From positions 434,001 through 498,000 of the forward strand of contig QPGO01000031.1 of the NCBI GenBank assembly GCA_008632985.1: 64,000 bases of DNA, given 5' to 3'. Each line of letters starts with the position of its first letter. Positions within the stretch are counted from its first letter, which is position 1. Of this stretch, positions 2,023 through 36,391 are shown piece after piece. Below the pieces are notes generated by a model, which worked only from the letters and a program-made list of their open reading frames with translations, was not told where the DNA came from and made no database searches. Origin of the DNA: Psammoneis japonica. Its lineage: Eukaryota. Made by a program: the position numbers and the translations under genes.

Positions 2023-2990
2023 ATGTCAGATGAACTCTGTCCATCCGCTGCTCAGGATTTCCATCACCGGATGATGGAGACAGTTGATGGTTTTGTTCAT
2101 GCTGACGCTGCTCGTTGTTCGGAGGAACAGAGAGCAAAGGATGCAAAGGCTGCTGTGTCAAGATCGGTGGAAGCAATGGCAGAAGCCCGTTGTGCCACTG
2201 TGGCTGCAACGACCACACTTGACAGTGCTTTGTTAAATCCAGCAACAACCACTCGCAAATTTAAGCACATCTGTGCGCAGTTGATTGAGTCATCGATCGA
2301 GACACACCATTCAGACAATGACTGTGTTGCCGCAGTGGAAAATTGCAGCGAAGCGGAAATGAGTTTCCAATGCTTTCTTCATGGTGACGCATTTGACGCA
2401 AAAGAATTGGGGCTCCCAATCTCCGTTGTGGACATCAAAAATCAGAGTTGAGGCTGCACATGCTGCACAGCTGTGACTCGACGTTGCTTCTGAGAAGCCT
2501 CAGGGCAAATTCTGACACAGATGCCAACAGAGTGGTGGAGAGGGAGCAATCTGCGATTGACAGCATCAACAAATCCATCCACCGCCGTGCCGTGCCACTC
2601 CTTCGAAGGCAACATCTAACACAGCCGCTGCGCATCCTGAAGGCTGCAATCACATTGCTCCATGGGGCCCTTGACGATTTGAGAAGGAAAGACGTTGCCT
2701 TGCAGTGACAGTGGCAAGCTTTGCATGTTCTGTGGCCAGGCACAGATCAAATGCGGGGAGGGACATGGACCGCGATCTGGGCTGTGGATGAAGAAGCCGT
2801 GGCAAGAGAAAGGGTCCTGCAGTTGGCATCGCAAATCGAGGCACAATTGGTGGCTGTCAACCAGCCTGACCACAGTGCCGACTTTCAGCAGGCAATTGTG
2901 GCTGCCAGGGAACATTTCATGGCGCAGGATGACCAAATGGACCGCGCAAGTGGACACTGCATAGAATCCACGAGGAAGCAATTGCTCTAA
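2023..2990 (+). pseudogene. Unidentified helical ORF fragments inside the transposon
   Basis: ORFs 2023-2451 and 2721-2990 read as protein-like, converge on the transposase 3' end and lack Tyr. No family recognised. Confidence 0.3.
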
Positions 2991-5900
2991 AAATGCACAC
3001 ACTGTGAGCGAAATGACAGATTGAAGCGCGCATCCTGTTTTAGAAACAAATCTGACCAACACTTCCTTCTGTCCTGTGCAGCCCAAACAAATGGGGCCTT
3101 TTCTTGCGCTTCTGCCACTCCTGGACATTCTTCATGAACCAAAACATTGTCCCCAATTGCTTCGACAGGGACAACACGCAACTCAGGTGAGTGCTGAGTC
3201 TTCTCAGGCGTTGACAGCCAGTTGTTTTGTTTGTGATCAAGCTGCCAGCGACTGACCAAGTCTGCATGCTGACACCGTTGCCTCATGGTTCTCTGGTCAG
3301 CTTGACAAGCAGTTGGATGGACAACTGCAAAAATTGATCCTGTGTGTTCCTGTTCAAAGAAACACAGCAAACGGGAGGGGAAACTGTTGATCGCCCTTTT
3401 GTGTGCCAAAGGTCACACAGGCAAAGTCATGCCATGGTCCTTCGCTTTTGAAATCGGGGTGCGCACGGTGCGCATCCCTCCCGTTTGCATTGTAAAACTC
3501 TGTCTTACAAGTCGGGTGTGCATTTTCACTGTCTTCACCAACACAATCCTCCCACTTTTCCGACATGAAGTTTGGCAACACAGGATGAACTTGGCAACGA
3601 GTGTGCTCGCTGTTCCACTCAAACGTCACAGCGCCAATCCCTCGGTTGCAGGTGAGAGTGAACGTGCTTCCTCCCAGCGTGTGATTGTCCATCCTGACTC
3701 TTGATGATTCCTTTTTCCCAGTTGGCAAAATCCAACCATTGGCTGAAATTGCGGCGTTGAGCCTCATTTGGTCCTCCATGCGCGACACGACCTGCTTCAG
3801 AAAACTGTCGAGGTTGCATTGTTGTGTGGTGGATGACGGCAGCTTGAAAAAGTCTTTCAAGAGACACCCCCCCAAGCCTGCGTCAAAGTTCATCGCATGT
3901 TGGCAACAACAAAGAAACACTGGGAGATGGAGTGTTTCATGAAGCTTTCGAAGCTTCCACCCGCATCCTTCTGTTCGCGGGACGAACTGCACTGTCCGGT
4001 CAATGAGGAGACGGATTTTCTTGTTCATTTTCTGAATGGATGAACTGGGAGTTGCGCTTGTGATGGGTGGATCGCCCAGCCTGTGCCATGCGTGGAAGAC
4101 AAGAAGGTCCTCGAGCAATTGAATGAATTGCCGGACGCTGCAGCCGAGTCTTTTCCCTTGCATTTTTTCTTTTTTTGGTTGTCGTCACCATCCTCAGCCT
4201 CACTCTCCTCTTTCTCATCCTCATTTTCGTCCCAGTCACCCTCTTCGGACTCCTCCGACCTTTCATCGTCAGAGTCGTCCAAGTGCTCACTGGGTTGGCA
4301 GCAACTCTCAAAGTTTGCTTTGGGTGTCTTGCGATTCTCTGGAACAATGGGTTCGTCTGTGTCCTCGTCAAGGAAGCATGACTCACATGTGTTTCGTCCC
4401 TCGCTGGTTGACAGGAGAAGGTAGAAAACAAAAGCCATTCCAGCCCAGTGGTGAGAGTTGAGGAAGGCAAGCGACGTTGCTCCTCCTTTGAAGTTTGTTC
4501 GCAAAAAGGATGCTTTGCAAGTTGACTGGTGATTGCTGAAAATCCTTTCCACTGTGCTGTCCACCTCACTTGCGACCACAGGTGTCATGCTGTCTACAAA
4601 TGAATTGATCACCCTTTTCAAGGTGCCGTTTTCAAAGAGATGCATCATGTCGCTTGCTGTCGCAAGGGTGACGCCGCATGGTTGTGCGCCAAAGTCTGCC
4701 TCAAAAAGACAGTTGGCAGGTGCATTGTGTTGCTTGAGGCAATGCAAGATGCCCAACCAGTGCTTCCTTTCTTGGTCTGATCTGTCATCGTCGTTGGCCT
4801 TAGTTTGCACTTGGTGGAGATCCAGTCCTTGGACAAACTCGCATTCAATCCATGGGTCGTCCAGTTTGTTGAAGCCAGTCAGGCAAAAACGACGCAACGT
4901 TGATGACAGTTGTGACCTCCGCATCGTCCGACGAGACAGTCGCCGCTTTTTGCGTCTCCTGTGATGAGAACAATCAGCGGGATCATGTGGAGGTGTCGCA
5001 TCTCATCCCCTCGTCGCACGCATGTTTTCATGCCTCCTTTTCTCATGACTTCCAAAAGTGGCTCCAAAATGACACGCAAGCAAGTGTGGCAGTCTCTTGA
5101 CGAGCGTCCCTTCTCCGCCTTGCGATTGTTTGAGAGATTCTTTGCCGCAGATGACGACATCTTTTCCAAATCCGGGAGATGACCAAGAGGTTTCCAGACA
5201 CTCTTGTCCGACCATTTGTTGAAGGCAACATGCGCAGAGGTCATGATCACTGGTTCTCCGCAATGTGATCCCATCCCTTGTGTCCTGCCAGTCTTGTTGA
5301 GGTAAATGACATTGCACTCGAGAAATTGTTTCTCCGGGTCAGTTGTCCGTTCTTCGTAACTACGCCTGCACCACTCACCTGCCAAAAGGCACTTGTCATC
5401 CGGTCCCTTTGCTTTGTGCTTCCCAAAAGGATTGTCTGGATCGGCCATGTTCTCTCTGCTGCACCACAGGTGAGGATCGAGCAAAAACTGTTCCCAAACC
5501 TTTGTGAAATCCCATCTTGGCACTGACACTCGTTTTGGCAAACCGGTTTTGAAATTTTTGGTTTCTAGAGTGACAGGAATAGACTCGCTGGGTGGAAGAG
5601 GGAAATGCTTGGTTAAGGTGCGCATCAACTCTTTTCTCCTTGGCAGAACTGCACCAAGCTCAATGTTGCTGTCACCAGTGTGCCTCTCAATGAAATCAAC
5701 AATGTGATCGCACAATTCCAGGGGAGCACCACGTGTGTCCATGAGCTTCTTGCACAACTCTACGCAAGCTCCGTCAAGATTTGTCAAAGAGGGAGTAGAA
5801 GCCAAGGCCTCTTCTGCAGGAGCATCACACCTGCTCCCCAAACGTTGATCCTCATCGTCAATGTCCTCTTCCTCCTCCATTGTCACGTCCAACACTGCAG

Positions 5901-6345
5901 CAAAGGATTGACCACCGCCAACATCCAACTTGTTCATTGCCAAAAGTTCAACTCCTTGCATGCTGTGGTTTGATGAAATGGAGGACATGTCGTCCATTCC
6001 GTGCGGCGCGTCATCCAGGGGAGGGGAACAAGGGGCTGCTGCTTGGATCACTCGTTGAAGATCTTGGGAATCTGCTGCGAGTTGATCGCCTGGGATGGGA
6101 TTCGTCATCATCAGAGGACAAAGAGGAAGAACTGCCACTTTCTTCTGGTGGCCCCTCTGTTGTGGCAGGAATGTCGCTTTGATCTGGGACCAGATCTTGG
6201 GTTTGCAACTCTTGGGCAACTGAGCAACACGTCGGTGAGCATCTCCAATGGCAGGCCATTCGCAAAAAACTTTGGTCACAACTGGGACAGAGAAGAGGGT
6301 TTCCGTCCATTGTAAATCAGACAATGTTGACAGGGCCTTCATCAA
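2987..6345 (-). pseudogene. Plavaka-family transposase, frameshifted and hypermutated
   Basis: Consecutive ORFs 4879-6345, 4025-4924, 3354-4163 and 2987-3409 carry motifs I recognise from this family: 'IPLIVLITGDAKSGDCLVGRCGGH', 'DMMHLFENG', 'KLRKLHETLHLP...NFDAG', 'AHRAHPDFKSEGPWHDFACV' (family pattern YRAHP..GPWYD). Confidence 0.75.
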
Positions 6346-6762
6346 GACTCATGCTTGTCGTCCTTGTCTTGTGGATGAGAAGGGGAAAAAAGAACAACAC
6401 GCAAAAAATGGTTGGGAAATTGGCAAACATTACATTGTCTTCCAGATTGGGATGATTCTTGCAGGTGTGACGCATCTGCATTTTGATTTTTTATCTGGCA
6501 TCCACAATGAATGTTGTGCTTTTTATTCACTGTCAAAATGCAGGACATTGTCTCCGTTGAAACGCAATGACAGCCATGTCAAAAAGCAAGTTGGACTGTT
6601 CGTTGTCATGTGCAAATGTGTTTTCAAATTTCAATGTTGCTGACAACAATTTGTGCAATGTCACAGAGAAAAACAGAGTGCCTGGCTGTCTCAACACGAC
6701 CCAAACGACGGTTGCACTGTCGAACAGCACCACTCCTCTCGTTGTTGCCGTGAAAAGATCAA

Positions 6763-7972
6763 GATGTCGTCTCCAGCACAACCGGCAAAGAAGAGAAAGA
6801 AAAATGAGACTGTTGAGCCAATGAGCCCGAGACTTCAGGCAGTGTTGAAGAGAACAGGCACGCAGCAGCGCATGGTGCATTGAAATCAGAAGCAGGGAAG
6901 GTGGCCAGAAATGATCTCTTTCCACAGGTGAAGTTTCTCAGTCCATCTGAGTTGGCAAGCAATGGGAGCGTCTCAATGTTTGTCAAGAAACAGATTGCTG
7001 GTGGCAACATGGACACTTCAAATCGGTCAGGAACTTGGGAGGAATGGGCAAAAAAGGCGGCAAAAGGCAAATTGACAATCGCAGATGTTCGGCTGTTGGG
7101 GCGGAGGCAATGGCACGCAAGTCAAGTGACCAATGTGTGTGATTCGAGAGTTGCGCGCATCTCACAAGAAGATGAAGGTGATGCTTTGTCTGTGTGGGCG
7201 TTGTCACTGAGGAAGAGGGAAAGGAAAAAGAAAAGAAACTCAAGGCGGCAGACAGGAGGAAAAAGAGGAAAAAGTCAAGCCGTGACAAGAATGAAGAGAA
7301 TGACATCCCGTTTGTGCCGACATGGGATCCGTTCAGCCTGGACACTGTCACCGGCGGTAAACGAAGGAACAAGCAGGCATGCAAGTGGTTCTGTGATCAC
7401 ATCCTGCCTCAAACCAAGCAAAAGCAGGCATGGAGCAGCACCGTCAAAACTGGGAACGCACAGGTCTCACAGTTGTTTATGGTCGGTGACGAAGCTTTGG
7501 CACTGTTGGCCATGGAGAGTCATTGGCAGGTGTGGGCATGCAGGAACAAGGAGGAGGCGGTGGAAGAATTGGGTGAGGAAATGGAGCCCGAAGAACAAGG
7601 CCTGCCCCTCGGTGCACGAAGCCAAAGAAACAATGAGTGTCTTGGGGAGACGACGGAATCAATCAGTTCAACGATTTGTGCAAAGAGGTGACGAAAGACA
7701 GAGACTCCAAGGAGGGCAAGGAGTTTGAAAAGTGGCATGCAGAGATCAAGAAAAGCGAGTGCGAGAAGTCCGGAGAAGCAAAAAAGAAGAAAAAGAAAGC
7801 ACCGGCCGGTGATGCAGACAAGGTGAAGGCAATGAACAGCCCAATGGTGGAGAGCAGCAGGGATGATGACAGCAACAACGATGAGCAGGAGGAAGGCGCA
7901 AAAGGCAAAACGGATGACAGAGGAGACGAGTCCGATGGAGACGAGTCCGATGATGATCGTCAGCTTGGTTGA
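6763..7972 (+). pseudogene. Transposon accessory ORF, divergent from the transposase, frameshifted
   Basis: 'FMVGDEALALLAMESHW' and 'SWGDDGINQFNDLCKEVTKDR' match the DEAFALL..EN.W / W..EGI..FN.L...V..DR pattern of accessory ORFs in such elements. Acidic and Lys-rich tails. Confidence 0.55.
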
Positions 7973-9460
7973 GAGAGTTGCAGCAAGAAAATGTGCACAC
8001 AGTTTACACAGCACTCGGTCATTGCACTGCAGACGCAACAAGGGATTGACTTAACCAATGAAATGCTTTTCTCGTTTAAGATGGTGTTTGCGAAAATTGA
8101 CAAACCAAGGATTGTGTGGAAATGCAACCACGCACTGGCATGTGGCAACAAGGTGGAGGCAGACACAGTGATGTGGACACAGTGAAAAACAGCGTGCATG
8201 ATTCTCAACGAGTCATTGCAATGTTGGTGTGGCAAACTTGTGACCAGAGGTTGGCCTTTCATCACATGACAATGATGTTTTGCAACATTTTGATGAATCA
8301 TCATCATGCAAATCTACACATTTTTGACATTTCGTGCACTCTGATGAGGAGGCTCCCATTCTGGTTGTTGACAAGCAGCTGGCTGCTCGTCTGGTTTCAC
8401 GTGCTGAACAAAGCTTTGGCCACTTGCCTTGTGTGCTGCCTGGTTGTGCAGGCCCTTCTTGAGACTGGCCACCCATTCAGGAGAGGAGCAGCTCAACACT
8501 GCGGCCCTGCTGCAGCCTTGGTTCCAGCCACATTGGTGCACTGCTGAGCTGACCCCCAGCGGCGCGCAGCATTTCTTCCTGTGGGCAGGGCACACAAGGC
8601 CAAGACTTGACTCTGTTGTGAACACCTTTCATTTTGGCAGGTTCCAGAAGCTCCAGGTGACAGGCAATGCATGAGTGCAATCATCAAATGTGGCCAACTT
8701 CACTGTCCCACAAACTTCTTCTTCAAGCTTGGTTTTTTCCAAAGCTGAGGTGCAAGCACACACAAGAATTTTTTGTGCAGCCGTGCTCCAATTTGTTTTG
8801 TGGGTTTCCAAATGGGAGTTTCAGGAAAGGTGTTAAGCTGCGATTGATGGATTTTTGGTTTCTCAGGAAAGGTGGTGAGCCCTGCTTGATGGATTTTTGG
8901 TTTCTCACCTGGGGCTGGAACAAGCAAGCCTTTCTTTGGAGTTTTGATGTGCAACCACTTGTGCCTGTGATGTCAAGTTTGGATTCAAGGAGTTGACTTT
9001 TGGAGTGGTCACAAGCAATGCTGTTCATGTCCTCACAACCAAAAAGTGAGAGCAGCCAGACTCTTGTTGCGCTTTGCTCTCATTCTGTGACAGCGTGCAG
9101 AGCAGCAGAAAACAGCCAAGCTGCAAATGCCAGCCACAGCAGCAGGGCGGTGATGAGGAAGAGTGCAAAAGAGTGCATGGTGTTAAAAAAACAGGTGGAG
9201 GGGGGCGCACAAGGAGATGGAAGATGCACTCCAAATCTTCTTTGCTGTTTGCAGTGAAGGGGGGGTTCAAGAGCGGCGGCTGATGACATCGCACCAAATT
9301 TGGCGCGCTTCAATTTTCGCGAGCTGCACCTCTCGCCTGGCTGCCCGTCTTGGATCTTCTGGGCGATGCAGTGTTGATGGCCTCATCATTCTTCCGGTCG
9401 GTATCTTCTATCATAGGGCCCTCCCTGCAGACAGTGCATGCTGTGTAACTTTCAGGACCG

Positions 9461-9910: not shown

Positions 9911-10384
9911 CTTTTCTTGGCTTGGATGAGCGTGTTGATGCTGGCTAGCTAGTGCACTCTTAGGGTGCACTTTCTTGGTTGTGGGTTCGTGGCTTATAAG
10001 GACACCTTTTGATTTTTTCAGAAGCAGAACTAGAGAATATTCGTGCAAAGCAGGTCAAGGAGCTAAGAGACAACTGTACGAAGCACTTCGGTAGTCGTAG
10101 AGCTAGCCAGAGATGTAGGTATGCATGTTGATCTATGTAAAAACAAAAGTACAATAAATAGCCAACACTGATGAAGGTTGGCGAACAAATCCGGAATCAG
10201 TGAAAGAACCTAGACGCCTTCCGGTGCAAGTGACGCGGGGGCGAATTCTTCTTCCTCTTCCAATAATGGATCCAACGATCCCACCATTTATTTCGCGACT
10301 TTAACATCGAGAGGTTGTACATTCGGCCGCGCTAGCTACTCCTACTTCACGCTTTTGCTTGAGGAGAACCTCAACATCTCATGT

Positions 10385-11200: not shown

Positions 11201-11378
11201 GTTCGACCGGTGTTCTCAACATCTGGCGTGGAGTCACTTTGAGCCTTTTGACATTCATTCCGTGTAGTGTGATAACTTGTTTGTGTTCTGATTTTTATGT
11301 CCCGGATCGTGTTTTTTGCGCGAATGGGTCGCGTGTCGGCGCCAGTCACGCCACGCAGGTCATGAGCTGGCTCTTTTT

Positions 11379-12653
11379 TGTAACGGCAGCTTTGGGCGGG
11401 ACGGGGGACTGACCGACCCGTCCTTCAATTTTTCGACGCGAAATGGCAGTGCACGGCGCACCGGACTCTCTGTTGCCGCCGCTGACGTCCAGTGACCACC
11501 GACGATGCAATGGTGAACTTCAGCCAGCACAAGTTTGCTCTTGACCTTCATTGTTTTTTTCTCTTGTTGTGCACCATTGCCGCAAGAACAGCGAGGCTCG
11601 AACAGCTGTTTTCCTGCTGGTGATTGACTCCTCCTGTGGTCGATTGACAACATGTCGCTCAGCGGCCACACCTGCAAACAAGCACTGCCTTTCTGTTGAG
11701 AACATCTTGAGCAGTGTGCTGTTGTGGTCCTTTCCAGCACCCCGCCAAACTGCCAATTTTGTGCTGGCGCACGGAGCCAAGCAAAAGCCGGTCTCTCAAG
11801 ATCTCTGGTGCACACAGACACTTTTTGGGAGTTGTCAAAGCTGGCAGAAATGAAAAAGGCTTGGCAGTGCAAGCTCCTCACACACCTCTCCTGTTTGGGG
11901 GCACTTGGTCAGGAAGACCAAGCAAATGAGGCAGCTTCTCAAGAAAACGGTCTGTGTGCAGAGTTGCTGTGTGCTGCACAGTGCCTTGTGGCTGCTGCAC
12001 AATGAGCAGAAAAATGGATTCATTTGAAGGAAAACACAGAATTTTTAGAAAGAGGCAGCCAACAAGTGCAAAACTGTGAAGGTGCTTGTTGTCTTTCCTT
12101 CAAGGTGTGGATTTTTGAAAGTGCAAAAAGCACAAATTTGTGGCTGAGGCCAGAAGCCACGCTGCAGCACCCTTTTGCAAACCACTCTGCTGAGACTTGT
12201 TCTCTCTGCATCTGCATCAAAAGTTCTTTGCCAGCTCAACAAACTCTCTCTGAGAAGGAGGAAATGACAAGCCACAACATCACTGCTTGCGCTGTTGTTT
12301 GCACACTTGAATGTGATGCGCCAGAAGCAACCCCATCATTTGCAAATTGGATTTTTCTTCCGGTTGTTGTCATGTGGTGCATCAGAAGATTTCTCTGGCC
12401 ATTTGTGTGTGTTTTCTGCAAAGCACCTTCACATTTATGGATGAGAATGACTTGTGGATGAGAATGACTCTCACCAAAAATTCAAGGGCAGAAGACAGCA
12501 CCCGGCAACAGAAGTGCAGTGCTTGGCCCGGGCGCTGCCCCAGCACACTTGTTCCCACAATCTGCACCACTTTTCCCACCCTGCAAAATGACAAGGGGTG
12601 CAACTTCACCACAACCACTGTCAAGAAATGCCAACTAGATCAGTGATGTTACA
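11379..12653. mobile_element. Degenerate non-coding repeat or TE remnant (TpA-depleted tract 2)
   Basis: TpA- and partly CpG-poor segment bounded by TGTAAC (11379) and GTTACA (12653). No TSD and no recognisable ORF. Confidence 0.4.
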
Positions 12654-13047
12654 CACCAATTCAGCGCTACGACAAAACAAATTTCATCCCCGAAAAACGA
12701 AAGAAACTCCCTTGAGGACGAGAACTGGTCAAAAAATCAAAATGTCATCATCTGACATATCTAACTCGCAATGAAAAAAGGACACGGCATTGAGATGCAA
12801 CGCTCGCAATGACCTTCAATGTCAAATGGGCACCCGCGTCGATTCTTGGACTGAAAGTTCAAATCATCCAAAGCAAAACTCGCCCTGAGACGATAGATCC
12901 ATCATCGCCAACCGTGACAACTGTTGAAACCGGTCGAAAGAGAGTAGCGTGCCCCGTTTTTTGGCAACAGTAGAGTCAAAAAAAGTGCAGAAAAATTCAC
13001 GTCTATGTTGGCCTATTTGAAGATACAATCATTGTGTAGCATGGGAG

Positions 13048-20085: not shown

Positions 20086-21645
20086 CGTGTAATTTTTAGG
20101 ATTGATAGATGATGTCTTGTCACTTTCTGTCTTCCTGGGTTCTCGTTGCAGCGGTTTGCTTCTAAAAATTTCTCGGAGTTTTCTTCCTGGTTTTCCTTCC
20201 TTTCTTTTATTGACTAATTTATAAAATGATTCAGAAATGCTTTTTATTAATGTCCATATGCGTGTGTAACCTCATCGTTTCGCAATGAGAACACACCAAA
20301 ATGGGCACATCCCATCTGCTCAGATGCGGGGAGCTCGCTTTGTCCTCGCTCTGCCGTCAGGCGGCAACAGATGCTGCAATCTTGACAACAACTGAAACAA
20401 GACTTGGTTTGAGGCCTGCCCCTGCGCATCCCAGTGCAACTGCTCGTCCTCCGGAGAGTTCCCAGCTCCATGCTCCCGCCAACTGCCCTCTCAACTGCAG
20501 CCAACGTGCGACTTCTCTCACCCGGGGTTCAAACAAAAAAAGTCAAGATGAAAGCGATTGGCGTGCAGCTGATTGGGCCACCCAAGAGCTGGTGGACACT
20601 TGCTGTGCTCTCGCACGTGTGGACGAATGCAGCCAAAACTTGTGTTCCTCTGCGGAAATCATTTTTTAAGAACAATCAAAACAAACTGTGAAAGTGAGTC
20701 AAGTGCCTGCACAAATGAAATGAAAGCAAGGATGCATGCTGTCAACCCAAGTGGCAGCTGGAGTGAGACCAGCTCAAAGACCTGGGCACACCCAGCTGAG
20801 TCAGCTCATGTGCTGCCAGCTGGAAGCCAGCTGTTGTGTCTGAGGACAGCAACATTCCCAAAGAGAGTGCAATCAGCCAAAGCTTGAAACCCTCAAATCA
20901 GGCAGCTTTAACTTGCAGCCAGTTTTCTTGGATGAAGTCATGAATGAAGTTGCAGCAATGAGCTGGGCTGATGCCACCAAGCTCTTGACCAAGTGCTGCA
21001 AGCTCCTCGCGCCTTTGGAGAGCCAGTGCGCTGACAGCAACCACGGCTTGTGTGCATTTCACCTTTTCATCTCTTGTTCACCAACACACTTCCAGCTGCC
21101 AAGCTCCTCATGCCCAAATGTCTGCAGTCACAAACTTCACAGGAGAGCTGCTTCCCCCACTCTGTGTTGCAACAGCTTGCAGCAAAAAGGTCAGCACTGT
21201 CAATCAAGAGCAAGTTCCTCAGCAAGGTGGTTGTGCCTGTCAACAAGGCACCTTTTCCATCAACCCCAGAGCCCAGCATCGAGGCCCACTTGTGTGCAGT
21301 CAAAGACTCACGTGTGCGAGTGGCGCTGCTTCACTTGCCAGCATCACCAGCATGGCATGTGCGCAGGTGTGCTGACAGCCATTTGTGTGGGAAACAAACC
21401 TGCCAAATGCCCCTCTTGGATGCCCCCCCCCCCCCCCCCCGATTGTGCGCTGCAGCTCCCAGCCACAGCATCCCCATGTGGGGTGAAGCACCAGCCGCAA
21501 GACACTGCAAATCTGCACCCGTTGCGCCGGGTGAGATGCCTCAAATCTTGTCATTGCAAAGTGCCCCACAAATGGTTCCACTGACTGGGTTCATGCTTCT
21601 ATTTTCATTTGCGTCAAACACTCGAGTTGCTCTCTTGGAGACTTG

Positions 21646-21830
21646 TGTCAGTCCACCTGTCGTACGATGGACAGACTGTGTGGATGATGACTGGACCATT
21701 TGGACAGATGAGCAGATCTCTCTGAGATCTGCCTCTCACTTTCTCATCCACTGGTGCTCGTGCTGTCACAGTCCCAGTGCTTGGGGAGTCTTTCATGCCT
21801 CCATCATCATTGACCTTCAGCATTCTGTCA
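21646..21830 (+). repeat. 5' LTR (185 bp)
   Basis: Direct repeat of 28600-28786; starts and ends TGTCA. Confidence 0.95.
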
Positions 21831-22029
21831 GGTTGTGGCCTTGCGCTGTGCCACAGAACTCTGGCAAAGCTTTCCATCTTGATTCATTTGTTTTGTGAGC
21901 CGACCGAGCAAGCCTCGTCATCTGTTCCAACAACAATTTTTTTCTCGTTTTCCCGGCATTTTTCACGATCGTAGAAACACACCAGATTTCTGCGTGTGCA
22001 TGACCAAAAATGCCCTCTCCAAGTGAAAC

Positions 22030-25000
22030 CATGGCATCTCCCGACCTTGCAAAGGCCGCTCAACGTCCATCACAGAGATCCATTGTGAATTTCAAGAACA
22101 TGCAACGACACCTCATTTCCATGCGACCTTGAACAAGACACACACGGATTCAATGTTTGATCTGGACCCGTTCTTTGATGATCCAGAACATGCTCAAGAA
22201 AGATTTTGTTGACACATTTCGAGTTCACCTCATCAACATGGCGTTCCCACCTTGCACGGTTCATCCTGCAGACATGCAGCCTGTCAAGACGATTGTGGAT
22301 GAAGCTGCGTTCCGCATTGTTGACTCTGCCAGGCCTCGTGCAACCCGCATGATGCCCGCATCTCTCTCATCGATCATCAAGACCAATCTCCGGAACCACA
22401 ATCAAATCACATGTGTTGTCATCTCTACACACCACATCAACGTTGACCCCGACATGATGTGGAACTGTGAGGATTGGAAGGAGTTCTCCCTCATGCCCTG
22501 CCTGCAGAACCCACAGCCCACACCATCATCTACGACTGGTTCAGGACCCACAACAGCTGGTGTGAATGACTCAATCACGCCCTCAACAAGTTTGTGTCAA
22601 GCCACGCTCCGCCTTCTGCTGCCTCTGGCAAGACCTCTGGAACCCCTGCAACTTCCACAGCATCCAAACATCTCTTCAATCCCAACACCTGCAAAGAAAG
22701 TGGTGCCGTCACCCTGAAGAGCTCTCTGGTCCCTTGTGACATGGATTCCGCCACTGTGTTGATGCATCAGACCGCATCATTCTCAATGATGGTGCCCCAT
22801 TCATCATGAGCTCAGCCCCCAACCAGAAGATGCCATTCAGAGAACCTCGATCTGCCATGACGATTCTCCCGCTGGGACACGTGCATGGCACCAAAATTTT
22901 CAACGTCACTCCTTTGACTCGGGACACTGTGTGCATCCTTTGTGGTGCTTTCCAAGGACCACGGTGGTGAGAAGGGTTTTGAGATTGGCAATGGCAAAGA
23001 TGATGACTCACCCCAACGAATGTATGTTCATTGTAAAGAAGCACAAAGTTCCCTTCACAAGACACTTTCCAAGTCGGACATGTTCCCCAAGAACAGCAAG
23101 TGTCATCGGATTGTTGCATCATGCTGTGGCAACGGCTGCAAGGCTCTCAAGCAAATTGTCTGTGAGAACCACCCAGCTTTCACCACGAAGCTGCTGGGTT
23201 GGTAGATTCCCACCCTGTTCAAGGAAATCTGTCCTTGACGGACTGTCACTTGCGTTTCAAGGATTTTCTACAGCTGCGCGCTTGTGTCTTTAATGTGGAC
23301 TCTACGTTGGATGACTCTCGAGAGATGACTGTTTTCATCAAGAACACCAAATGCTCCAAGTTCTCACCCCATGCTGCTGGAGATGAAAGGAAGTCCCCTG
23401 CTGTGCTCAAGAAGTGCACGGATGCACAGATTGTTGAGACCCCATCTGACTTCCTTTGTCAGTCGGATGGCCATCTCTTGCAACTCACACGAATCCTCGC
23501 AATCCACACCGCACATGGGATCGACACCCAGGGGACACACATTGCACAACTGCCGATGTCAATTCCTTGACTGTCCCGGATGTCCCTCCCATTGCAGAGG
23601 ACACTGATGAGCCACCTTCACCGATCACTCCCCCGAGGACACCTTTGACTCCCTCTGTGCTGAATTGCATGACCTTGACATGCCTTCTGCAGATGAAGAT
23701 CGTCTTCTTCATCATGTTTGCTCTGCTTTGGCACACAAACTCAAGGTTGCTCCCACAGAGGCCTCCAAGAAACCATGCCTTGTTTGTTCTGAAGAACACT
23801 TGTTCCACGAGTGTCCTGTCTTGAATGACAACCCGCCATCAAGGGCTTCCACACACGTTTTTGTCAATTCTTGAAGTGTGAAGCGGCCATGCGAGCCTCT
23901 GGATTTCAAGGACCACAAGGTTTGTTGCCGCCTCATCAAGGACCATCTGATTCTCGCCCAGTGCTGGTGTCCAGTCTCCGGATTTTCAATCGGGACATCG
24001 CAGCTGGTTTTGGATCTCCGACGCAGCCCATTCTCTGCCCACCAAGACAAGACCAATGTCAGCGGGATGACTGTGAAAGAGGGACCAAACGTCTCGTCAT
24101 CTGCCGCTGTGCTGCCTCTTTCTTTGACGACTGATGTGGACTGCATCCCTGACTCGAAGGTCTCTCCTGACACCATCAAGTTGCCTGATGATGATCCTGT
24201 TTCTCCCTGATGGCACATTGGAGACTGATCCTGTTCTGGACTCTTTAGAACAGGGGAGGGAAGATTTAGAGGAATGTGAATTTGCCAAGTTTGTTGATCT
24301 TGCCTGTGATGACATTGCTGTTGAGGACGGTTTTGCCACAGTGAATTCTGTCCGCGTTTCCCCACTTGTCCCACTGCACGATGATGATTGGATCCACCAG
24401 ATCTGCTCCGCACTGCCTGCGCTGTCAATGGTGTCAAGTTTGCCCCAAATGAGCAATGTGCTCAACTTGACACTGGTGTGCTGATGTTGCTTGTGCTGGA
24501 GATTGTGATCTCCTGCATCAATGCCAGGCATTTGCTCCTTCCGCCCCGTGCCCGCTTGCTGCCAATCCAGCTCTTGGACATGAAGCTGTCCCAGTCGGCT
24601 TTGGATGTCTTCGCATCCCTGCGGAGAACTCCGATGGCCATGTTGAGATTCGTGCATGTCACCACCCCACAGCTCCAATCCACCTTGGTTGATGAGCATT
24701 TGCTGCTCCGTCAGAATGGCGCCCGTCACATGGATTGCAATGTTGATTGCATCCTCAAGTTCCATGATCTTGGCACTTGCAAGTTTGTTGTGCACGGCAT
24801 CATTTGCGCAAGAGTCAGGATGTTGTTGTTCATGGGAAACTGATCAATGGCAAGTGTCACACTCACCCACTCATTCTCCCAGAATCACATGATGAGCCAG
24901 ACGCATCAATCGAGCGCCTCAAGGCAAGTGACCCCTCCTTTGCGGATGAATGTGAAGCAGTCTCAGCCCACATGATTGAAACACATCGTGAACACCAACA

Positions 25001-28000
25001 TGATGCTCTCTGCATGGAACGAAAGTTGATCCCCTGAGCATGTCAAGACATCCCGTTTGAGCAGCACGCCAAGAAGAACACTCCCGTTCAATCCCTCAAG
25101 GCTGGTGCGGAACGCCTTTTATGGCATCAACGTCTTGGACACCCCAGTGATCACTGTCTTTGCCATGCTCACGAACATGTTGATGGTGTCCCCAAGTTTG
25201 CACATGGCACATCCCCCCTTGACACTTGCCCCACATGCATCCGGGCCAAACAGATGAAGGAACCTGCTGGACCCAATGCTGCTTTGACAGCCACCCAACC
25301 CCACCAAGGTCTCACCGTAGACTTTTCTTTTTCTGGTCTCCGCTCCAGGAACACTGAGCATGTCAAAGACTGTGTTGGGTTGAATGGTGAGACGTGTTGG
25401 ATCACCGTTTATGATCATGCAACGAAGCACCTCCATGGTGCGACTCGTGTCTCAAAGGCCACCCCCTTGAATTGGATTCGCCACTTTCTGGAGGAGCACT
25501 CGCCAAAATGTCCTGATGAACATGTTTTTCTGGATCAAGGAGGTGAACTGTGTGACAATCCGGTGGTTCGGCGACTCTTTGAGGATGACTTTCATTGTGC
25601 AATTTGTCCCACTGGCAAAGATGCTTCAAATCAGAGTGGCCCAGTTGAACGGAGTCATTTGACCATTGCCAATGCCATTCGGGCGATGCTTGTCAGTGCC
25701 AATTTACCCGTCAAGTTCTGGCCCCATGCTTTCCATCACTTTGTTCGGATCAAGAATGCTGTGCCATCCCGGGGGCAGACTGCTGCTCCGATTGCACTTG
25801 CTGCTGGTCGGAAGGATGACTTTTGGAACTTCCACACATTTGGTTGTCGCGTTTGGGTGCGTGCTTCGAATCACCGTCCGGCAAAATTCCGGACCGTCTC
25901 ACGCAAAGGGATTTTCTTGGGATGCCTCCCGGATGCCACCAAGAACATTTTATGGCATGACACCGAGACATCGCGTGTCAAGCTGGCCAAGCACATCAGA
26001 TGTGATGAGGGGATGAATGATTTACCCCACGAATCTATTCCCCTGAATGTTGTTCATTTGCAACGTGCTCAGGCTGGTGATGCCCTCCCTGCCGACACTG
26101 AAGAGACCACTGTGGATGAGCTCCACTTTCATGGTAACCCTTTCGCCAAGACCATCACACGCATCATGAAAGGACCTTTCACGGATTCCACTTTTGGCTT
26201 TTCATTGGCTGTGGATGATCCACACCAACGTGTTTTTGTCTTGGACATTAAATGTGGTTCCCCCGCTGCTCGTCTCTTCTCAAACTTGAAGGCAACCCAC
26301 AACAAGATCAAAGGCACACACACAGTGTCGATTGATCATCAACCAGTTTTTACCCATGACGATGCTGTCAAGCATTTCCAGCAGTTGCGTGAGTCTGGCA
26401 AGACACATTTTGAAATTGAATTCATGCCAGAACGTTGCTTGGACTCTCAGGCTCTCCAACGTGCTCTGATGGAACATGACGTGTTCTCCCCCACCCCGGA
26501 CCCTGACGATGAGCATGTCCCGGAGCTTGCACAAGCCGACACACGTGCCATTGCTGCAGTGCGCCATCCGGGTGCTGATTTTGAAGCCATTGACAACAAC
26601 GACGTCCCACCACCTGTCCATGTTGACCGTGACAATGGTGTCATCCATGTCCGTGCGACATCCTCCCATGCAATTGCCCCAGAGCAACAAGCCTTGGGCA
26701 CCTTCACTCGCCATCGACTCAAGAAAATGGACACTTGGCCTGAATGGCATGCGGGCGAATTTAAACAACTTGACCAGTTTCATGAGTTGGGCATGTTTGG
26801 TGCTCCCATCAAACGTCCGAAGGACGCAGTTGCACTGAGACCACACTGGCAATGTGACCTCAAACATGATGGTGCGCGACGCTCTCGTCAGTGTTGTGAC
26901 GGATCCCCTCGTGCTGCATCTGTTCTCCACCGTCTTTGTTCAACATGCTCCTCCTGTGTTGAGCAACCTGTCCAATGGATGTTCTTTGCCCTGGCAGCTA
27001 CGATGGGTTGTCTGGTGCATGGCGGTGATGCCCGCGATGCCTGTGCCCATTCTCCCCGCGCCCATCACATCCTGTCTGCGTTGCCATTGACAATGCATGT
27101 GCGACTTGGCACAAGTCTCGCTTTGGAAAGGAATTGGACAGGAGCACGGCACTTCCCGTGCAACATGCTCTTCAAGGACACCCAGAAGCCGGCGTGCTCT
27201 GGGAGAATCACATTGATGGTGTCTCATCTGATGTGAATCTTTTGTTCCGGAACACTGCTCATGACAAATGCATCTGCTCTGCTGCATTTGAAGGACACAA
27301 AATTTTGCTCCTTCGACAGGTCGATGACTTCGCCATTGCTTGCCCCGAGGAGTCCATTGCCAGGACGATCTATGACAGGATCGGCAAAGCCCTTCAATTG
27401 GACTCAGAAACTGCTCCCCCTTTCAAGCACCTTAGCCTCTTGGAGGAATTCAATGGCGTGGACATCCATCAGCATGATGATTCGATTGGCATTGCCATCC
27501 ACAATTACATTGATCGTGTTTGCCTCTCACACGGTTGGTCTGCACCAAGTGATGACGAACTGCTTGATGACTCCAAGGTGACTCCGATTCCGGTGGACTC
27601 CATTTGAGATCTTTACACTGACATTGGTCCTGCTGAAGGTACACTGGAACATGTGGAGCTGCATCAAGCTGCTGGATTTGGATGCCGTGCCCTCCTTGGT
27701 GAGCTGTTGTGTGCGTGTGTTGTCTGTCGACTCGATGTTGGCTGTGCTGTCACTGCCCTTTCCAAGTTCTCCACTTGCCCTGTGGTGGCACATTGTGATG
27801 CACTCAAGGGTGCATGCAAGCACATCTCCGATGTGCCAAACATTGGGAATTGAACTGCAAGAAATCTAAACGTGACCCGAGCCTCCCTGCCTGTCCGTTT
27901 GAACGCTTGAGCCCCAGCCCGTCTCTCCCGTCATTCCCCACTCCTGAGCATGACCATCAACTTGTTGCCTTCCTTGATGCTGCATGCGGAAATGATCTTC

Positions 28001-28430
28001 GTAATCAACGTTCTACGACGGGACATGCTTGCATGTTGGCTGGTGTGCTGCTGTCTCCTTTCGTTGCAAAACGCAGTCGGTGACCGCTGCGAGTTCCACA
28101 GAAGCGGAATTCCATGCTGCTGGCACCACCGCCAAGCATGTTCTTCACCTTCACCATGTGCTGCATGACCTTGGTTACTCCCAAATGAAGCCAACCCCCT
28201 TGCATGTTGACAACAAATTGGCCATCAAGATCATCAATCATTCGATTCCGACCGAGCGTTCGTGCCACATTGAGACTCAGTTTTTCGCGATTCAACAATG
28301 GAAGGAAGCGGGCAAGATTGTCGCTGGACATGTCCCTGGCATTGTCAACCCCAGCGATGACCTTGCCAAGGCTCTTGGGTGGGTGCTCCACGCTCGCCAT
28401 GCTCGACACATGATGGGACACTGCCGTTGA
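22030..28430 (+). pseudogene. Copia gag-pol, broken
   Basis: Zn knuckle 'CLVCSEEHLFHEC' (~23775), protease DTG(A) (~24465), 'LWHQRLGH..CPTC', integrase 'DQGGEL..GPVER', RT 'ALQGHPE..RQVDD', RNase H 'DAA.GND..SSTEAEF..DN..HIE..NPSDDLAK'. Confidence 0.9.
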
Positions 28431-28599
28431 TGTTTTTTCTGCGGTGGCCTCCCCTGCTGTGCATTGCCCCGTCGTTTGATGCGTGTTGGGCTTGGACACC
28501 TTTGGTGTCCTCTTTCTGGTCGCTCTGTTTACATCATCCCCATTCTTGTTTTGATCTGCACTGTCTTCCATTTTTGAGACATTGCAGATCAGGGGAGGG

Positions 28600-28786
28600 T
28601 GTCAGTCCACCTGTCGTGCGATGGACAGACTGTGTGTGGATGATGACCGGACCATTCAGACAGACGAGCAGATCTCTCTGAGATCTGCCTCTCACTTTCT
28701 CATCTACTGGCACTCGTGTTATCACAGTCCCAGTGCTTGGGGAGTCTTTCACACCTCTGTCATCATTGACTTTCGGCATTCTGTCA
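28600..28786 (+). repeat. 3' LTR (187 bp)
   Basis: Direct repeat of 21646-21830; preceded by a polypurine tract. Confidence 0.95.
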
Positions 28787-29175
28787 ACTTGTCGTCATCT
28801 TGTGGCAAAAGCACGCGCCAACCAAAGAAAAGAGAGAAGACAAGGTGCACATTTTCAAAATTGTAGGCGCTTTTCCATTCAACATTCTTCTCATCAGTCC
28901 ACAACACATTGAGAGACCTGTGACAAATCTAGAGGGCTCCTTTCACACCATGTGCGACGGCGGAGGTTTGGCCTGGGGCACAGGAGAAGTGCTCCTGTGT
29001 TTTCCTGGGCTTTTGCGCGAGAGAACAAAAAATTCGCAAGGACAACGGACTCGGACACGTGAAGTTGCGACAACGACAACCACACAAAATTCCAAAAATA
29101 TGCCACCACAAAAGCGAGACACGGCACTTTGAATTTGCGGAGCCAACTACACTGACCCTACTAAAGTTATTTTCC

Positions 29176-33049: not shown

Positions 33050-33691
33050 GTTTTACCCCATGGTTGTTTTTTTTTTGCCATGCAGTGGCAGAGGAGTGCC
33101 TTGCCTGCTCCAGGTGTTGGAACATTAGGGTTAGAGGCAGTCTTTGTTGCACGGAGAAACAGAGTTGCAGCACAAGATGTGCTGACGATTGCGAGGAACA
33201 CGGCAAGTTTGTGTTCATGAGCTTGGATTGAGCTGCGGGTCTTGTGCTCACTTTTTGCTTCTGCACCCAGTTGACACTGCAATGGCCACACTGTGAGTTG
33301 GGAGACAGTGAGACCAAACTCGTGCCCCAGTCGGCAAGCCGAAAAGCTCTGACACAGAATCCAAAGAAAAGTCATGACACAGAACAAGGGCTGGGAAGTG
33401 GAGAAGAATTTGCAGAACAAGGGCTGCAAAGATTGAGACAGGAGTCCAAAGGAAAGTGCCGGGAGGTCAACAGGAATCCTGGGGCAAAGAAATGATCCCT
33501 GGAGGTCCTTGCCATTGTTGAAGAAGCTGTTGAGGGTCTGCTGAAAGAGGGCCAGGGTGCAGCAAGGTTGTGTTGGGGTCAGACAGAGTGCACATCTGTT
33601 GGCAAGCTGTGGAACTTGCACACAAGACCCAGAAAAGATGGGCAAGGACCAGCCACAGCTGAGTGTTCAGAAGCAGAAAAGAATTTAAAGA

Positions 33692-33733
<42 letters not shown>

Positions 33734-36185
33734 TGTGGTGTGTGTGTGTGGTGTGTGTGTGTGGTGTGTGTGTGTGTTGTGTGTGTGGTGTGTGTGTGTG
33801 TGTGTGGTGGTGTGTGTGTGTGTGTGTGATGCCATTTGCTGAGTCAGAATGACAGGCAGATGGACACACAGAAACAACAAGGAGGACCAGTGAGTGCATT
33901 GGAAGAATGTTTGGGACAGAGATGCAGGCATTGGCATCTCTGAGGCAGGAGAGCATGCCAGGAGAACTGGGTTGTCTGTCAAGAGACACCACATTGGAAA
34001 AGGATGTGAGGCAATCTGGGGCAAGAAGTGCCATGATCACCATGTGAAACAAAGTGCAGTCTGCAAGATGCAGAAGGCAAAAGCAGCAGCACTCAATGCA
34101 ATTGTGGGGCAATGTGCAAAGGCTGTGTTCATCACAAGCTTGAAGAAGTGGCAAAGTTTGTGAGAGTCTTGAAGGAGGCAGCGGTGCATGATCTTGGTGG
34201 CACTGCTGAGCACTCTCAAGCCAATCTTGTTCAACGCAAATGAAAAAACAAACCCACACATCCAGTCCCAGGCAGGCAAGGCTTGGAAGCAGTTGGTGCT
34301 CATTTGTCAATGTGAAGGAGCGAGAAGTGCTCCAAGACTGTTGCAGTTGGTTCGCGAGTGTTGTCAAAATGGCAAAAATGTTTCATGGCAGGATCATCCT
34401 GGAAGAAATTGCCAAGAAAGAACATGGGTTCAACAAAAATGTTGAAAACACCCAGAGCAGAGAGAGGAACAAGTCATTGGCTGTGATGCCAATGGAAGGT
34501 GCCAAAGATCATTTTGGCATGTCTTGGAAGACCCACATTGGCAGTTTAGCTGCACTGGGGGGGGGGGGGGGGGGTGTTTGACATGCACCCCAATTCAGCC
34601 AAGGAGGAGGCACCACAGGTGTTGAACATGCATGGGACCAACAAGAAACCTGAGGGAGCAAGTTTTGCACAGAATGACAGCGAACATTGTGCGCTGGAAG
34701 TGCGACAAAGTTGGGCATGTCAGGAGAGATTGTCCTGACAAAGTTGATGTGGCATTGGGTCGCATGGCTTCCCAGTGTCATCCTCCCATGCTTGATGAGC
34801 AAGAGGTCAACAGATTGATGAGTTGTGCAAAGGAGTGTGTTGGAACATTGGCGCCAGAGGCAGATTTCATGATGTGGACAGACAGAGTTGCAGTGCAAGG
34901 CACACTGACAATTGTGGACAATGTGGCAAGTTTACATTCAAAAACTTGGATTGAGTTGCAGGTCTTGCTGTGCTCACTTTTTAGCTTTTGCACCCAGTTG
35001 ACACAGTGATGACAGCCAGCAATGTCAGTTGATGTGTTTGCAAGCCACGCAGCAAGTCAGGAAATGGCAAGACCAAATGCACGCTGGTCAGCAAGCCACA
35101 AAGCTCCAACACCAGGCCATCACCCATCAGGCATCACACACATGATTGGGTGTGATGCTGGCAACACTTTCAGGTGGCAGCAGCAGGCAAAATGAGGGAG
35201 GGGAAAGGAAGGCAGTGGCTTGGCCAATGCAGAGTCAAGAAGTTTGACAAACATGACAGTCATGGAGCTGGCAACACTTTTGAATGGCAGGCAAAATGAT
35301 GGGAAGGAAGTGGTTTGGCTGATGAAGAGTCAAGTTTGATGAGTCATGGAGGCCCCAGAGTGATGTGCCAGGGCAGGGGTGAAGGAGCGGTGCTGCAGCA
35401 GAGCCCAGCTTTAAGGTGGTGTGCCAAAGCTTTGTTGGTTGATTTGCTCTTTGCTCCAAGACTTGGTCAAACCAGCTGGAGCAAGCCTCCTCAGTGTGCC
35501 ATTTTGTGGTTTTTTGGTGTGATCCTTGGCACTTGCCTGCAGGAAAAGAGAGCACATGTGCGGCGCTGCGCTGTCGCGCCAAAGAGAGGAAAGAAGGCAG
35601 TGTCGCCACCAAAGCAGCAACAAGAAGCCATGAGGAGGATTGTCAAAGATTGGGAAGGATGGCTCCACAGATCCACATGTCATCTTCAAGCCTCCTTGAT
35701 TTGATGACCACATGTTTTTTTCATGCAGGATTTTTTGTCAAGAACCTTTTCGCCCCTTCTTTCGTCACTCCAATGTTTTTTGTGTGTTCCCCCAATTTCT
35801 TTGTGCAATGCCCATTTTTTGTCTCTGCCTTCTTTGAACTCTGAAGACCACCCCAAGAAAAGAGCTGTGACTCACAGCCCGGGAAACGATGGCATGCACA
35901 CTGGGCTGCATGTGGCCAGCCGGGGTGCAGACTGGGGCGGGCTCTGGACAGCCAGCAAAAAGCGGTTTTTTGTGACATCGTGTGCCCCACCAGCACAGTT
36001 TTTCCAACACATCCACCCCTTGTTGGAATTCAGTTGAAACTTTCTCACAAAACATGCAGGCGCACATGTGGTGTTTTGCACGGAGGAGATCCTGTGGTGT
36101 GGCGACTTCTGCCATGCAACACTGAATGGCCCCCTTTTTTTGGATGACAGATGCGTGCACGGTGACGAATTTTGACTGGTGTTGC
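33050..36185. mobile_element. Highly decayed repeat or TE (TpA- and CpG-depleted tract 4)
   Basis: Near absence of TA and low CG. Internal diverged duplications (33220-33355 vs 34945-35110; 35157-35225 vs 35267-35320). No recognisable domain. Confidence 0.5.
33694..33828. repeat. Imperfect (TG)n microsatellite with TGG interruptions
   Basis: Directly visible. Confidence 0.95.
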
Positions 36186-36391
36186 AAAGTATCCGGATGT
36201 GGCGCATAACCTGCCGAGTACCGGTACTACGATGGGCCGTACGTGAATAGGTACCGGAGCGAGGCGTTGAACTCTTTTTGGATCATACATCATTGAAAGA
36301 GTCTAAATGCATTGTTAGCCGCCGGGCACAAGCTGGCACGAAACACGCAACGCTCCGCATCACTTCGCCGTTGGCCGAAAAACGAGGCACC

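Follow-up and report, generated by a model that had tools for sequence, protein, structure and literature searches.

Signature of TpA-specific hypermutation in a dead copia-type retrotransposon of the diatom Psammoneis japonica

We analysed a 64,000-bp stretch of the Psammoneis japonica genome (contig QPGO01000031.1, positions 434,001 to 498,000), called the window here, in which a full-length but dead Ty1/copia-type long terminal repeat (LTR) retrotransposon occupies positions 21646 to 28786, numbered within the window. Its two LTRs differ by transitions only, and the element together with a sharply bounded domain around it is almost stripped of the dinucleotide TpA. We hold with good confidence that element and domain underwent, after integration and at the DNA level, a TpA-specific A:T-to-G:C hypermutation, with CpG decay as a slower and independent process.

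Under this model the element and its ~8.9-kb domain would have been hit after integration, a TA step becoming TG where the A of the top strand was changed and CA where that of the bottom strand was, with the choice made independently at each site and TAY preferred. About 85% of the TA steps would be gone. The slower decay of (presumably methylated) CpG to TpG or CpA would have removed some 35-40% of the CpG, and the four TG/CA doublets that distinguish the LTRs would be sites where both repeats were hit, on opposite strands.

An LTR pair that differs by transitions

The element is a single insertion with two LTRs, since ACTTG flanks it on both sides, its repeats have TG...CA ends, and a polypurine tract lies next to the second repeat (Table 1). 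It is a Ty1/copia LTR retrotransposon both by its LTRs with their target duplication and by its domain order, which is that of Ty1/copia because integrase precedes reverse transcriptase. Pfam places PF13976 and PF25597 in the open frame at 25038-27236, and PF07727, under its cut-off, in 27029-27607. No tRNA primer-binding site was recognised by eye after the 5′ LTR, and no tRNA comparison was made.

The LTRs were compared by global alignment (21646-21830, 185 bp, with 28600-28786, 187 bp). There are 16 substitutions, comprising 16 transitions and 0 transversions. The sole indel, of 2 bp (TG), sits within a short (TG)n run; it falls after 21676 and has its extra unit at 28631-28632. Identity is ~90%, and the differences are scattered along the whole LTR. 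The original prediction had given the same counts, and every sequence context that it quoted is present. By dinucleotide, TA stands against TG at 21664 and 21765, CA against TA at 21749, and CG against TG or CA at 21692, 21709 and 21819; four TG/CA doublets lie at 21701-2, 21755-6, 21796-7 and 21802-3, and two C/T differences, at 21763 and 21815, lie outside pyrimidine-purine (Y-R) steps. Three CpG are intact in both LTRs and three in one only, whereas no TA is intact in both and three are in one only.

This pattern is not what chance placement gives. When 16 random transitions were put on the 5′ LTR in 200,000 rounds, TG/CA doublets averaged 0.29 against the 4 observed (probability of 4 or more, 4.5e-5), and 7.8 substitutions on average fell in Y-R steps against 14 observed (P = 9e-4). 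The absence of transversions is itself improbable: even at the transition share of paralogous contigs (1412/1849, from 1412 transitions and 437 transversions among the aligned run contigs described below), 16 of 16 transitions has a probability of 0.013.

Doublets can arise from TA or from CG, as was originally predicted, and a simple rate model separates the two sources. Each LTR site is lost independently with probability p, and TG and CA are equally likely outcomes; the ratio of discordant doublets to single survivors is then p/(4(1-p)) (hand calculation). For TA, p is ~0.85 (1 - 0.086/0.6, from the internal region), which gives ~4.2 TA-derived doublets per 3 singles where 4 were observed. 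For CpG, p is ~0.33-0.43, and 0.4-0.6 CpG-derived doublets are expected (hand calculation). By this model 11 of the 16 differences (three singles and four doublets) are best assigned to the TA process and three are assigned to CpG decay; two fit neither. The LTR pair yields a rate ratio of ~140-fold per base over non-Y-R sites, a hand calculation with very wide error. The wider evidence likewise favours TA as the source of the doublets: TpA in the element is at 0.086 of expectation while CpG is reduced by ~40%, tyrosine codons have turned into CAY and TGY, the LTRs share three CpG and no TA, and ~4.2 doublets are expected from TA against ~0.5 from CpG.

It had also been predicted that the changes postdate insertion and struck each LTR independently, on either strand; the intact target duplication and a TpA-poor domain that passes both LTRs support this. 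A further consequence concerns age. The naive LTR distance is 0.086 (0.092 corrected), against 2/95 = 0.021, without transversions, outside Y-R steps. Dating from LTR divergence therefore overstates the age of the insertion ~4-fold or more, in line with the original prediction that it would.

Ectopic gene conversion from differently mutated copies of the family is another way to make two LTRs of one element differ. The family is multi-copy, and donors would carry alternative TG and CA states. Such conversion would merely move the origin of the differences to another copy, in which the TA process would still be required, and the differences extend over the whole LTR rather than forming one tract. 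We consider it improbable as the source of the differences, to which it may have contributed. The window holds no other LTR copies or solo LTRs of the element, an exact 30-base LTR word has 0 matches in the genome contigs and the viral contigs, and none of the listed differences from paralogous contigs falls inside either LTR.

Lost tyrosines and the direction of change

Observed/expected ratios in the element are 0.086 for TpA, 0.576 for CpG, 1.75 for TpG and 1.53 for CpA. In the whole window TpA stands at 0.40 and CpG at 0.80, and in genes at ~0.55 and ~1.0. When the 16 dinucleotides are counted symmetrically, TA and CG are the only ones depleted and CA/TG the only ones enriched, with AA and AT normal. 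The element's G+C of 0.51 compares with 0.47-0.49 in the surrounding DNA.

Protein conservation tells which state came first. The open pol frame has 1 tyrosine (Tyr) in 732 codons (0.1%), where 150 homologues have a median of 3.2%; Cys (3.6% against 2.0%) and His (7.5% against 4.0%) are in excess over the same homologues. In an alignment with 45 homologues that yielded 260 conserved columns, none of the eight conserved Tyr is kept: four are now His (CAT/CAC), two Cys (TGT/TGC), one Trp and one Phe. Other residues are kept in 15/15 columns for Asp, 10/10 for His, 8/8 for Trp and 15/19 for Arg, the four lost Arg being now His (two), Trp and Leu. A separate count over 195 proteins, based on a profile hidden Markov model (HMM), gives the same result. 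There Tyr is kept in 0/7 columns, all seven being now His or Cys, and the other conserved columns are kept in 170/198; the median share of conserved Tyr kept in the other proteins of this count is 0.82. Since conserved TAY codons are now CAY or TGY, which is the change TA to CA or TG, TA was ancestral and is what has been destroyed. Read from these codons, the change is from TA to either TG or CA, it affects either strand, and TAY is preferred.

Paralogous contigs add single sites. At 23063 the window has CA where all 17 covering contigs have TA, and at 22144 and 24364 it has CA where all covering contigs (11 and 4, respectively) have CG, in each case among the differences listed. Four public proteins (P0307, P0129, P0161 and P0212) share the loss, with conserved Tyr kept in 0 of 4-7 columns.

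The changes also bear on what the DNA can encode. No A-to-G or T-to-C change can convert a sense codon into a stop. TAA and TAG stand at 1.7 and 0.9 per kb per strand in the TpA-poor blocks described below, against 8.2 and 8.6 elsewhere, with TGA unchanged. Because TAA and TAG have been removed and sense-to-stop changes are impossible, the 7.1-kb element is overlapped by 48 stop-free stretches of 80 or more codons, in all six frames, and a dead pol retains a frame of 732 codons. Such long open frames in TpA-poor blocks could mislead gene finders; at the same time hypermutated copies escape annotation, their domain signal being lost while long frames are kept in all six frames. Regulatory words go as well. 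TATA occurs 0 times in the 22.1 kb of poor blocks, both strands counted, against 1.6 per kb elsewhere, and AATAAA at 0.02 per kb against 0.23. Loss of these promoter and polyadenylation words would be expected to silence a copy.

Block-wise and copy-wise targeting, independent of CpG decay

TpA-poor DNA was delimited in a 1-kb profile with a two-state HMM, and the edges were then read from the TA positions. The HMM called 401-9400, 11301-12600, 20301-29100 and 33201-36200, refined to the four blocks of Table 1, which total 22.1 kb and carry 2.0-4.8 TA per kb against 36-45 in genic stretches. All have abrupt edges. On the left of the element's domain, TA steps are spaced 10-40 bp apart as far as 20267; beyond it there are just three before the element begins, at 20667, 20909 and 21600. 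On the right TA occurs at 28864, 28930 and 29099 and is dense again from 29148. The domain thus reaches 1378 bp beyond the element's left end and 361 bp beyond its right end. Either the process spread past the element into this overhang, or the element landed in an older relic. CpG observed/expected is 0.20-0.69 in the four blocks against ~1.0 in genes. On this count the blocks are also CpG-depleted, and CpG loss appears to account for three of the 16 LTR differences and not for the loss of TA.

The sequence context of surviving TA was scored by the bases on either side. In the poor blocks RTAY is left 4 times, RTAR 19, YTAY 34 and YTAR 31, against 496, 423, 411 and 281 in the normal DNA of the window, giving survival indices of 0.015, 0.085, 0.157 and 0.209, respectively (chi-square P = 1e-8). 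Hardly any TA survives where both strands offer the favoured context. The target is 5′-TAY-3′ with the A changed, or equivalently 5′-RTA-3′ with the T changed.

Relatives of the element in metagenomes show how the process varies among copies. A scan with the pol alignment gave 488 matching stretches, of which 257 encode a relative, and 80 loci were kept. Across these 80, rho(TpA) ranges from 0.01 to 0.81, with a main group at 0.55-0.81 and outliers at 0.01 (L073, 5501 bp), 0.15 (L040), 0.16 (L012) and 0.30 (L023, L045 and L048). Seven other copies align with L073 at 79-83% identity over 4.5-5.5 kb, and changes were polarised against the majority of the little-changed copies. L073 keeps 1 of 170 ancestral TA, with 89 now TG, 60 CA and 20 other, and L042 keeps 49 of 167 (53 TG and 48 CA). 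L037 and L032 keep 109/146 and 115/148, and L029, L028 and L022 have 2-3% change per TA base. CpG transitions are equal in all eight copies (0.12-0.14 per base). Transversion load does not follow TA loss either, L021 having 132 transversions against 137 in L073 and yet only 7.7% change per TA base. Within one family, then, TA loss runs from ~3% to 99% per copy and is unrelated to transversion load. Because CpG decay is equal and transversions are unlinked to TA loss, the TA process acts copy by copy, like a switch, and depends neither on CpG decay nor on age; CpG decay itself is slower, separate and partial.

The metagenome copies repeat the finer features as well. In L042 TA is mutated more often before a pyrimidine, with a share of 0.47 where the +1 base is C and 0.41 where it is T, compared with 0.18 for A and 0.19 for G; L037 and L032 show the same order. 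Along a copy, TG and CA outcomes follow one another at random (runs z = -0.63 in L073 and 0.53 in L042), which argues against long strand-coordinated tracts. Repeat pairs inside contig L043 differ by TA/TG, TA/CA and CA/TG doublets as the LTRs of the window do, with few CG sites. L012, from another family and another project, has 0.7% Tyr, and three of its five conserved Tyr are now His or Cys; intact copies keep theirs (L001 7/7, L007 7/7 and L005 6/7). The sister copies of L073 in the same contig series (Ga01631xx) and in ENA ORBV01 are untouched.

With these data a reading based on CpG alone can be weighed. It holds that all the differences come from deamination of methylated CpG, the doublets being CpG that became TG in one LTR and CA in the other, and the TA states a later product of CpA-to-TpA change. 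CpG is depleted in the element (0.58) and more so in block 33133-36189 (0.20), three LTR sites are plain CG against TG or CA, the contigs covering 22144 and 24364 have CG as noted above, and Phaeodactylum transposons are described as CpG-methylated in the text of PMC2806351. Three CpG intact in both LTRs, however, put p at ~0.33 and the expected doublets at ~0.4 rather than 4. The reading also leaves unexplained a TpA ratio of 0.086 and the loss of 8/8 conserved Tyr with Arg kept at 15/19, and in the metagenome family CpG decay is equal across copies that differ from 3% to 99% in TA loss. We regard it as very improbable. The original prediction had stated what would overturn it, namely that every difference derives from CpG and that the TA states are derived; for the element in general the evidence contradicts this.

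Editing before integration, whether of retrotransposon RNA by an ADAR-like enzyme or of single-stranded cDNA in the manner of APOBEC but on adenine, would be a different route to the same dinucleotides. According to a preprint on the chlorarachniophyte Bigelowiella natans (Mettrop et al., bioRxiv 10.64898/2026.01.13.699255), which cites this, ADAR-type enzymes favour a U before the A that they edit. Editing of minus-strand cDNA after plus-strand strong-stop could in principle leave unequal LTRs. Editing of one strand would give one outcome, whereas both are found, in random order (763 TG and 683 CA in the element; 89 and 60 in L073), and RNA editing would leave identical LTRs. The TpA-poor domain, moreover, continues past the LTRs on both sides, and blocks without retroelement features are equally affected. 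This route is highly unlikely.

Contigs of three sequencing runs were compared with the window. The contigs of run X1 contain 65% of the sampled 31-letter words of 21000-30900; since the flanks make up 28% of that stretch, at least half of the element's words are confirmed. Against the window, 434 contig pieces are 99% or more alike, out of 3259 pieces that match it at 80% or more. Summed contig depth is 925-3443 over the element against ~60 in the flanks (15-57 times, which is not a copy number). The element family is multi-copy. The contigs of run X3 have no match to the window, and those of run X2 match its genic parts only. The left overhang (20002-21335) has a single-copy depth of 55-64 in run X1 contigs, and a single-copy contig there differs from the window's TA at 20248, 20257, 20268 and 20909, where it has CA or TG; these are 4 of the 14 differences listed in 20196-21612. 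They may hint at recent activity, with the hypermutation extending at the left domain edge or being polymorphic there, or they may simply be allelic variation.

The same contigs bear on whether the signature could be an artefact of sequencing or assembly, for example through the miscalling of modified bases in silenced DNA. Neither the sequencing technology of the window nor the library of the matching run is on record, which leaves room for such an error. Apart from the confirmation by run X1 and the 434 pieces at 99% or more, the signature is found in metagenome contigs of other projects and in the public proteins P0307, P0129, P0161 and P0212, and the B. natans preprint describes it as arising de novo in Illumina data (bioRxiv 10.64898/2026.01.13.699255). 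With three separate lines of data against it, an artefact can hardly be credited.

Table 1. Features of the element and TpA-poor blocks of the window
Feature	Position	Strand	Remarks
Target-site duplication, left copy	21641..21645	.	ACTTG; read directly; identical to 28787-28791
5′ LTR	21646..21830	+	185 bp; TG...CA ends; one TA (21663); three CpG common with 3′ LTR
Ty1/copia-type LTR retrotransposon, full-length but dead	21646..28786	+	7141 bp; 36 TA, 268 CG, 763 TG, 683 CA
Open pol remnant	25038..27236	+	732 codons; GAG-pre-integrase, integrase region, SH3-like domain; 1 Tyr
Reverse-transcriptase (RVT_2) remnant	27029..27607	+	Other frame, downstream of integrase; 27.8 bits, below Pfam cut-off of 31.6
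Polypurine tract	28591..28599	+	AGGGGAGGG; adjoins 3′ LTR; read directly
3′ LTR	28600..28786	+	187 bp; two TA (28705, 28720)
Target-site duplication, right copy	28787..28791	.	ACTTG
TpA-poor domain around element	20268..29147	.	~8.9 kb; 4.8 TA per kb; sharp edges
Second TpA-poor block	371..9401	.	4.2 TA per kb; CpG observed/expected 0.62
Third TpA-poor block	11297..12635	.	2.3 TA per kb; without recognisable protein domain
Fourth TpA-poor block	33133..36189	.	2.0 TA per kb; CpG observed/expected 0.20; multi-copy in run contigs

One of the four TpA-poor blocks is shown to be a transposon, and the others have weak domain traces at most. A Pfam search of 41 frames in these other blocks gave four weak hits (Plavaka, NOA36, Mucin and zf-CCHC), all below their cut-offs. 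A weak trace resembling Plavaka transposase lies at 4882-6348, minus strand, in block 371-9401. A repeat search of 1-13000 found no LTR and no inverted terminal repeats, just one 42-bp duplication; this tandem unit (8821-8904, 86% alike) is near the right end of the same block. The fourth block contains a (GT)n microsatellite of ~71 units at 33694-33828, and the sole LTR indel is likewise one TG unit of a short (TG)n run.

A library search with the pol protein gave 6515 homologues at E up to 0.001. The closest named ones, with identities of 52-59% or less, are from Nitzschia inconspicua, Cylindrotheca fusiformis, Fragilaria crotonensis and Pseudo-nitzschia. One protein, P0278, carries the label of a Flammeovirgaceae bacterium metagenome-assembled genome and is 51% identical to the copia pol over 94% of its length; probably it comes from a eukaryotic contig that was binned into a bacterial genome. 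The best matches of a neighbouring zuotin/DnaJC2 gene are in diatoms, at 45-54%.

Mechanism and known systems

The process is most plausibly enzymatic, with a TadA/ADAT-like adenine deaminase acting on DNA as the best candidate. The natural sequence context of tRNA adenosine deaminases (TadA/ADAT) is U-A, in many cases U-A-C, and the same holds for early DNA base editors derived from TadA. The alternative is a chemistry centred on T, in which the thymine of TpA is modified in silenced DNA, for example to 5-hydroxymethyluracil, and is then mispaired or misrepaired to give T-to-C. T-to-C on one strand is A-to-G on the other, and TAY is RTA on the opposite strand, so the changes themselves suit both versions. 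In dinoflagellates, 5-hydroxymethyluracil is enriched at TpA and TpC. Against this, we found no evidence of such a modified base in diatoms, nor was any search for it successful here, and the context of TadA/ADAT favours the A-centred version. We judge the T-centred version unlikely.

Other candidates were rejected. A polymerase-eta-like WA signature is ruled out, as ApA is not depleted. GC-biased gene conversion and UV photoproducts are ruled out by an effect that is TA-specific, has sharp block edges and differs between copies. Repeat-induced point mutation (RIP) was excluded by its direction, with TpA at 0.09 and G+C at 0.51 against 0.47-0.49 around.

Several points weigh against TpA-specific hypermutation after integration, or limit how firmly it can be held. 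Assignment of the 16 LTR sites rests on rates rather than on outgroup copies of the LTR, the division of the doublets between TA and CG is a model estimate from few sites, and the differences at 21763 and 21815 match neither the TA nor the CpG process. The TpA-poor domain reaches into DNA that is single-copy today. Run X1, which confirms the sequence, may be the assembly's own source. For this organism no enzyme, inosine or de novo event has been observed, and on a palindromic TA step A-centred and T-centred chemistry are indistinguishable.

Hypermutation of this kind would serve to defend the genome: with Tyr codons, TATA motifs and AATAAA signals erased, mobile DNA would be killed although no stop codon is made. 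A bolder version, which we put forward tentatively and think somewhat doubtful as it stands, is a programmed diatom defence, in effect RIP in reverse. Here a TadA/ADAT-like DNA adenine deaminase specific for TAY would be guided, by chromatin state or small RNA, to whole sharply bordered domains of mobile DNA and would remove TA from both strands until saturation; the same system would operate in Rhizaria (Bigelowiella) and would be old within the Stramenopila, Alveolata and Rhizaria (SAR).

The signature is hereby extended to diatoms, which are among the most important marine primary producers. Some diatoms have knock-out genetics, methylomes and mutation-accumulation lines, which makes the search for an enzyme and its guide testable. 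For elements such as this, the dates obtained would be too old by a factor of about four or more, and, if a diatom-wide defence is real, there is an unrecognised bias in every LTR-based dating of diatom transposons. Diatom LTR insertions have been dated from sequence identity with one genome-wide rate, according to the text of bioRxiv 10.1101/2025.10.24.684338. The text of a Phaeodactylum mutation-accumulation study gives a GC-to-AT bias, with CG as the most mutable context. We found no report of TpA hypermutation in diatoms or other stramenopiles in the literature texts searched, among them works on diatom copia elements, DNA methyltransferases, mutation rate and transposon dating, which included PMC2806351, PMC6604790, PMC9998398 and bioRxiv 10.1101/2025.10.24.684338, supplements being outside the search.

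In structure the element resembles the CoDi groups of diatom Ty1/copia elements as the text of Maumus et al. (2009, PMC2806351) presents them, with the same domain order, a short LTR and a 5-bp target duplication. It differs in that the copy is dead and its pol is 52-59% identical to any public protein. As for the mutations, the CpG decay of methylated transposons in vertebrates, plants and diatoms is similar in that TG or CA arises from a self-complementary Y-R step on either strand. CpG decay is a minor component here (three LTR sites; CpG observed/expected 0.2-0.7 in the blocks). It cannot remove TA, is several-fold slower here than the TA process, and is uncoupled from it in the metagenome family.

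RIP of ascomycete fungi is closer in manner. Like the process described here it works at the DNA level, is transition-only and dinucleotide-specific, affects both strands and kills repeated mobile DNA; it too can run into adjacent sequence and inflates LTR divergence. Its chemistry is the opposite, since RIP changes C to T at CpA and creates TpA and stops, whereas here TpA is destroyed, G+C is slightly raised and no stop can be created.

To our knowledge a single description exists of TpA-specific hypermutation of invading DNA, in a 2026 chlorarachniophyte preprint, and we know of no enzyme for it. That study followed mutation-accumulation lines of B. natans by Illumina sequencing and, by its main text, found two integrated viral regions with a mutation rate ~1000 times that of the remaining genome (Mettrop et al., bioRxiv 10.64898/2026.01.13.699255). 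As reported there, 230 of 231 changes were A-to-G or T-to-C, all of those at TpA, in some lines only; the genome has 124 clusters of windows that are TpA-poor and rich in CpA+TpG; TpA-depleted coding sequences are enriched for reverse-transcriptase and DDE domains; and an ADAT2-like DNA adenine deaminase is proposed by the authors. The words diatom, Phaeodactylum, trinucleotide, flanking and LTR are absent from the main text of the preprint.

Three features of the B. natans type, namely change of TpA to TpG or CpA, discrete blocks and switch-like activity, are all found in our case. Going by that main text, both systems show almost exclusively A-to-G and T-to-C change, all of it at TpA, giving TpG or CpA and confined to blocks of foreign or mobile DNA, and both show TpA depletion with a gain of CpA+TpG in clustered windows (1-kb windows there). 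Activity is uneven in both, between lines there and between copies here. B. natans belongs to the Rhizaria, and the DNA affected is that of a giant virus and virophages, whereas Psammoneis japonica is a diatom (Stramenopila) in which LTR retrotransposons and other repeats are affected. Depletion is near saturation here, with rho of 0.01-0.15 against 0.45 in their giant-virus region, and co-occurring CpG decay, a TAY preference and razor-sharp edges are features of our case; de novo events were seen only in B. natans. What the present case adds to the type defined there is another host lineage, retrotransposons as targets, near-saturation, the TAY motif, sharp domain edges and a TA loss that does not depend on CpG decay.

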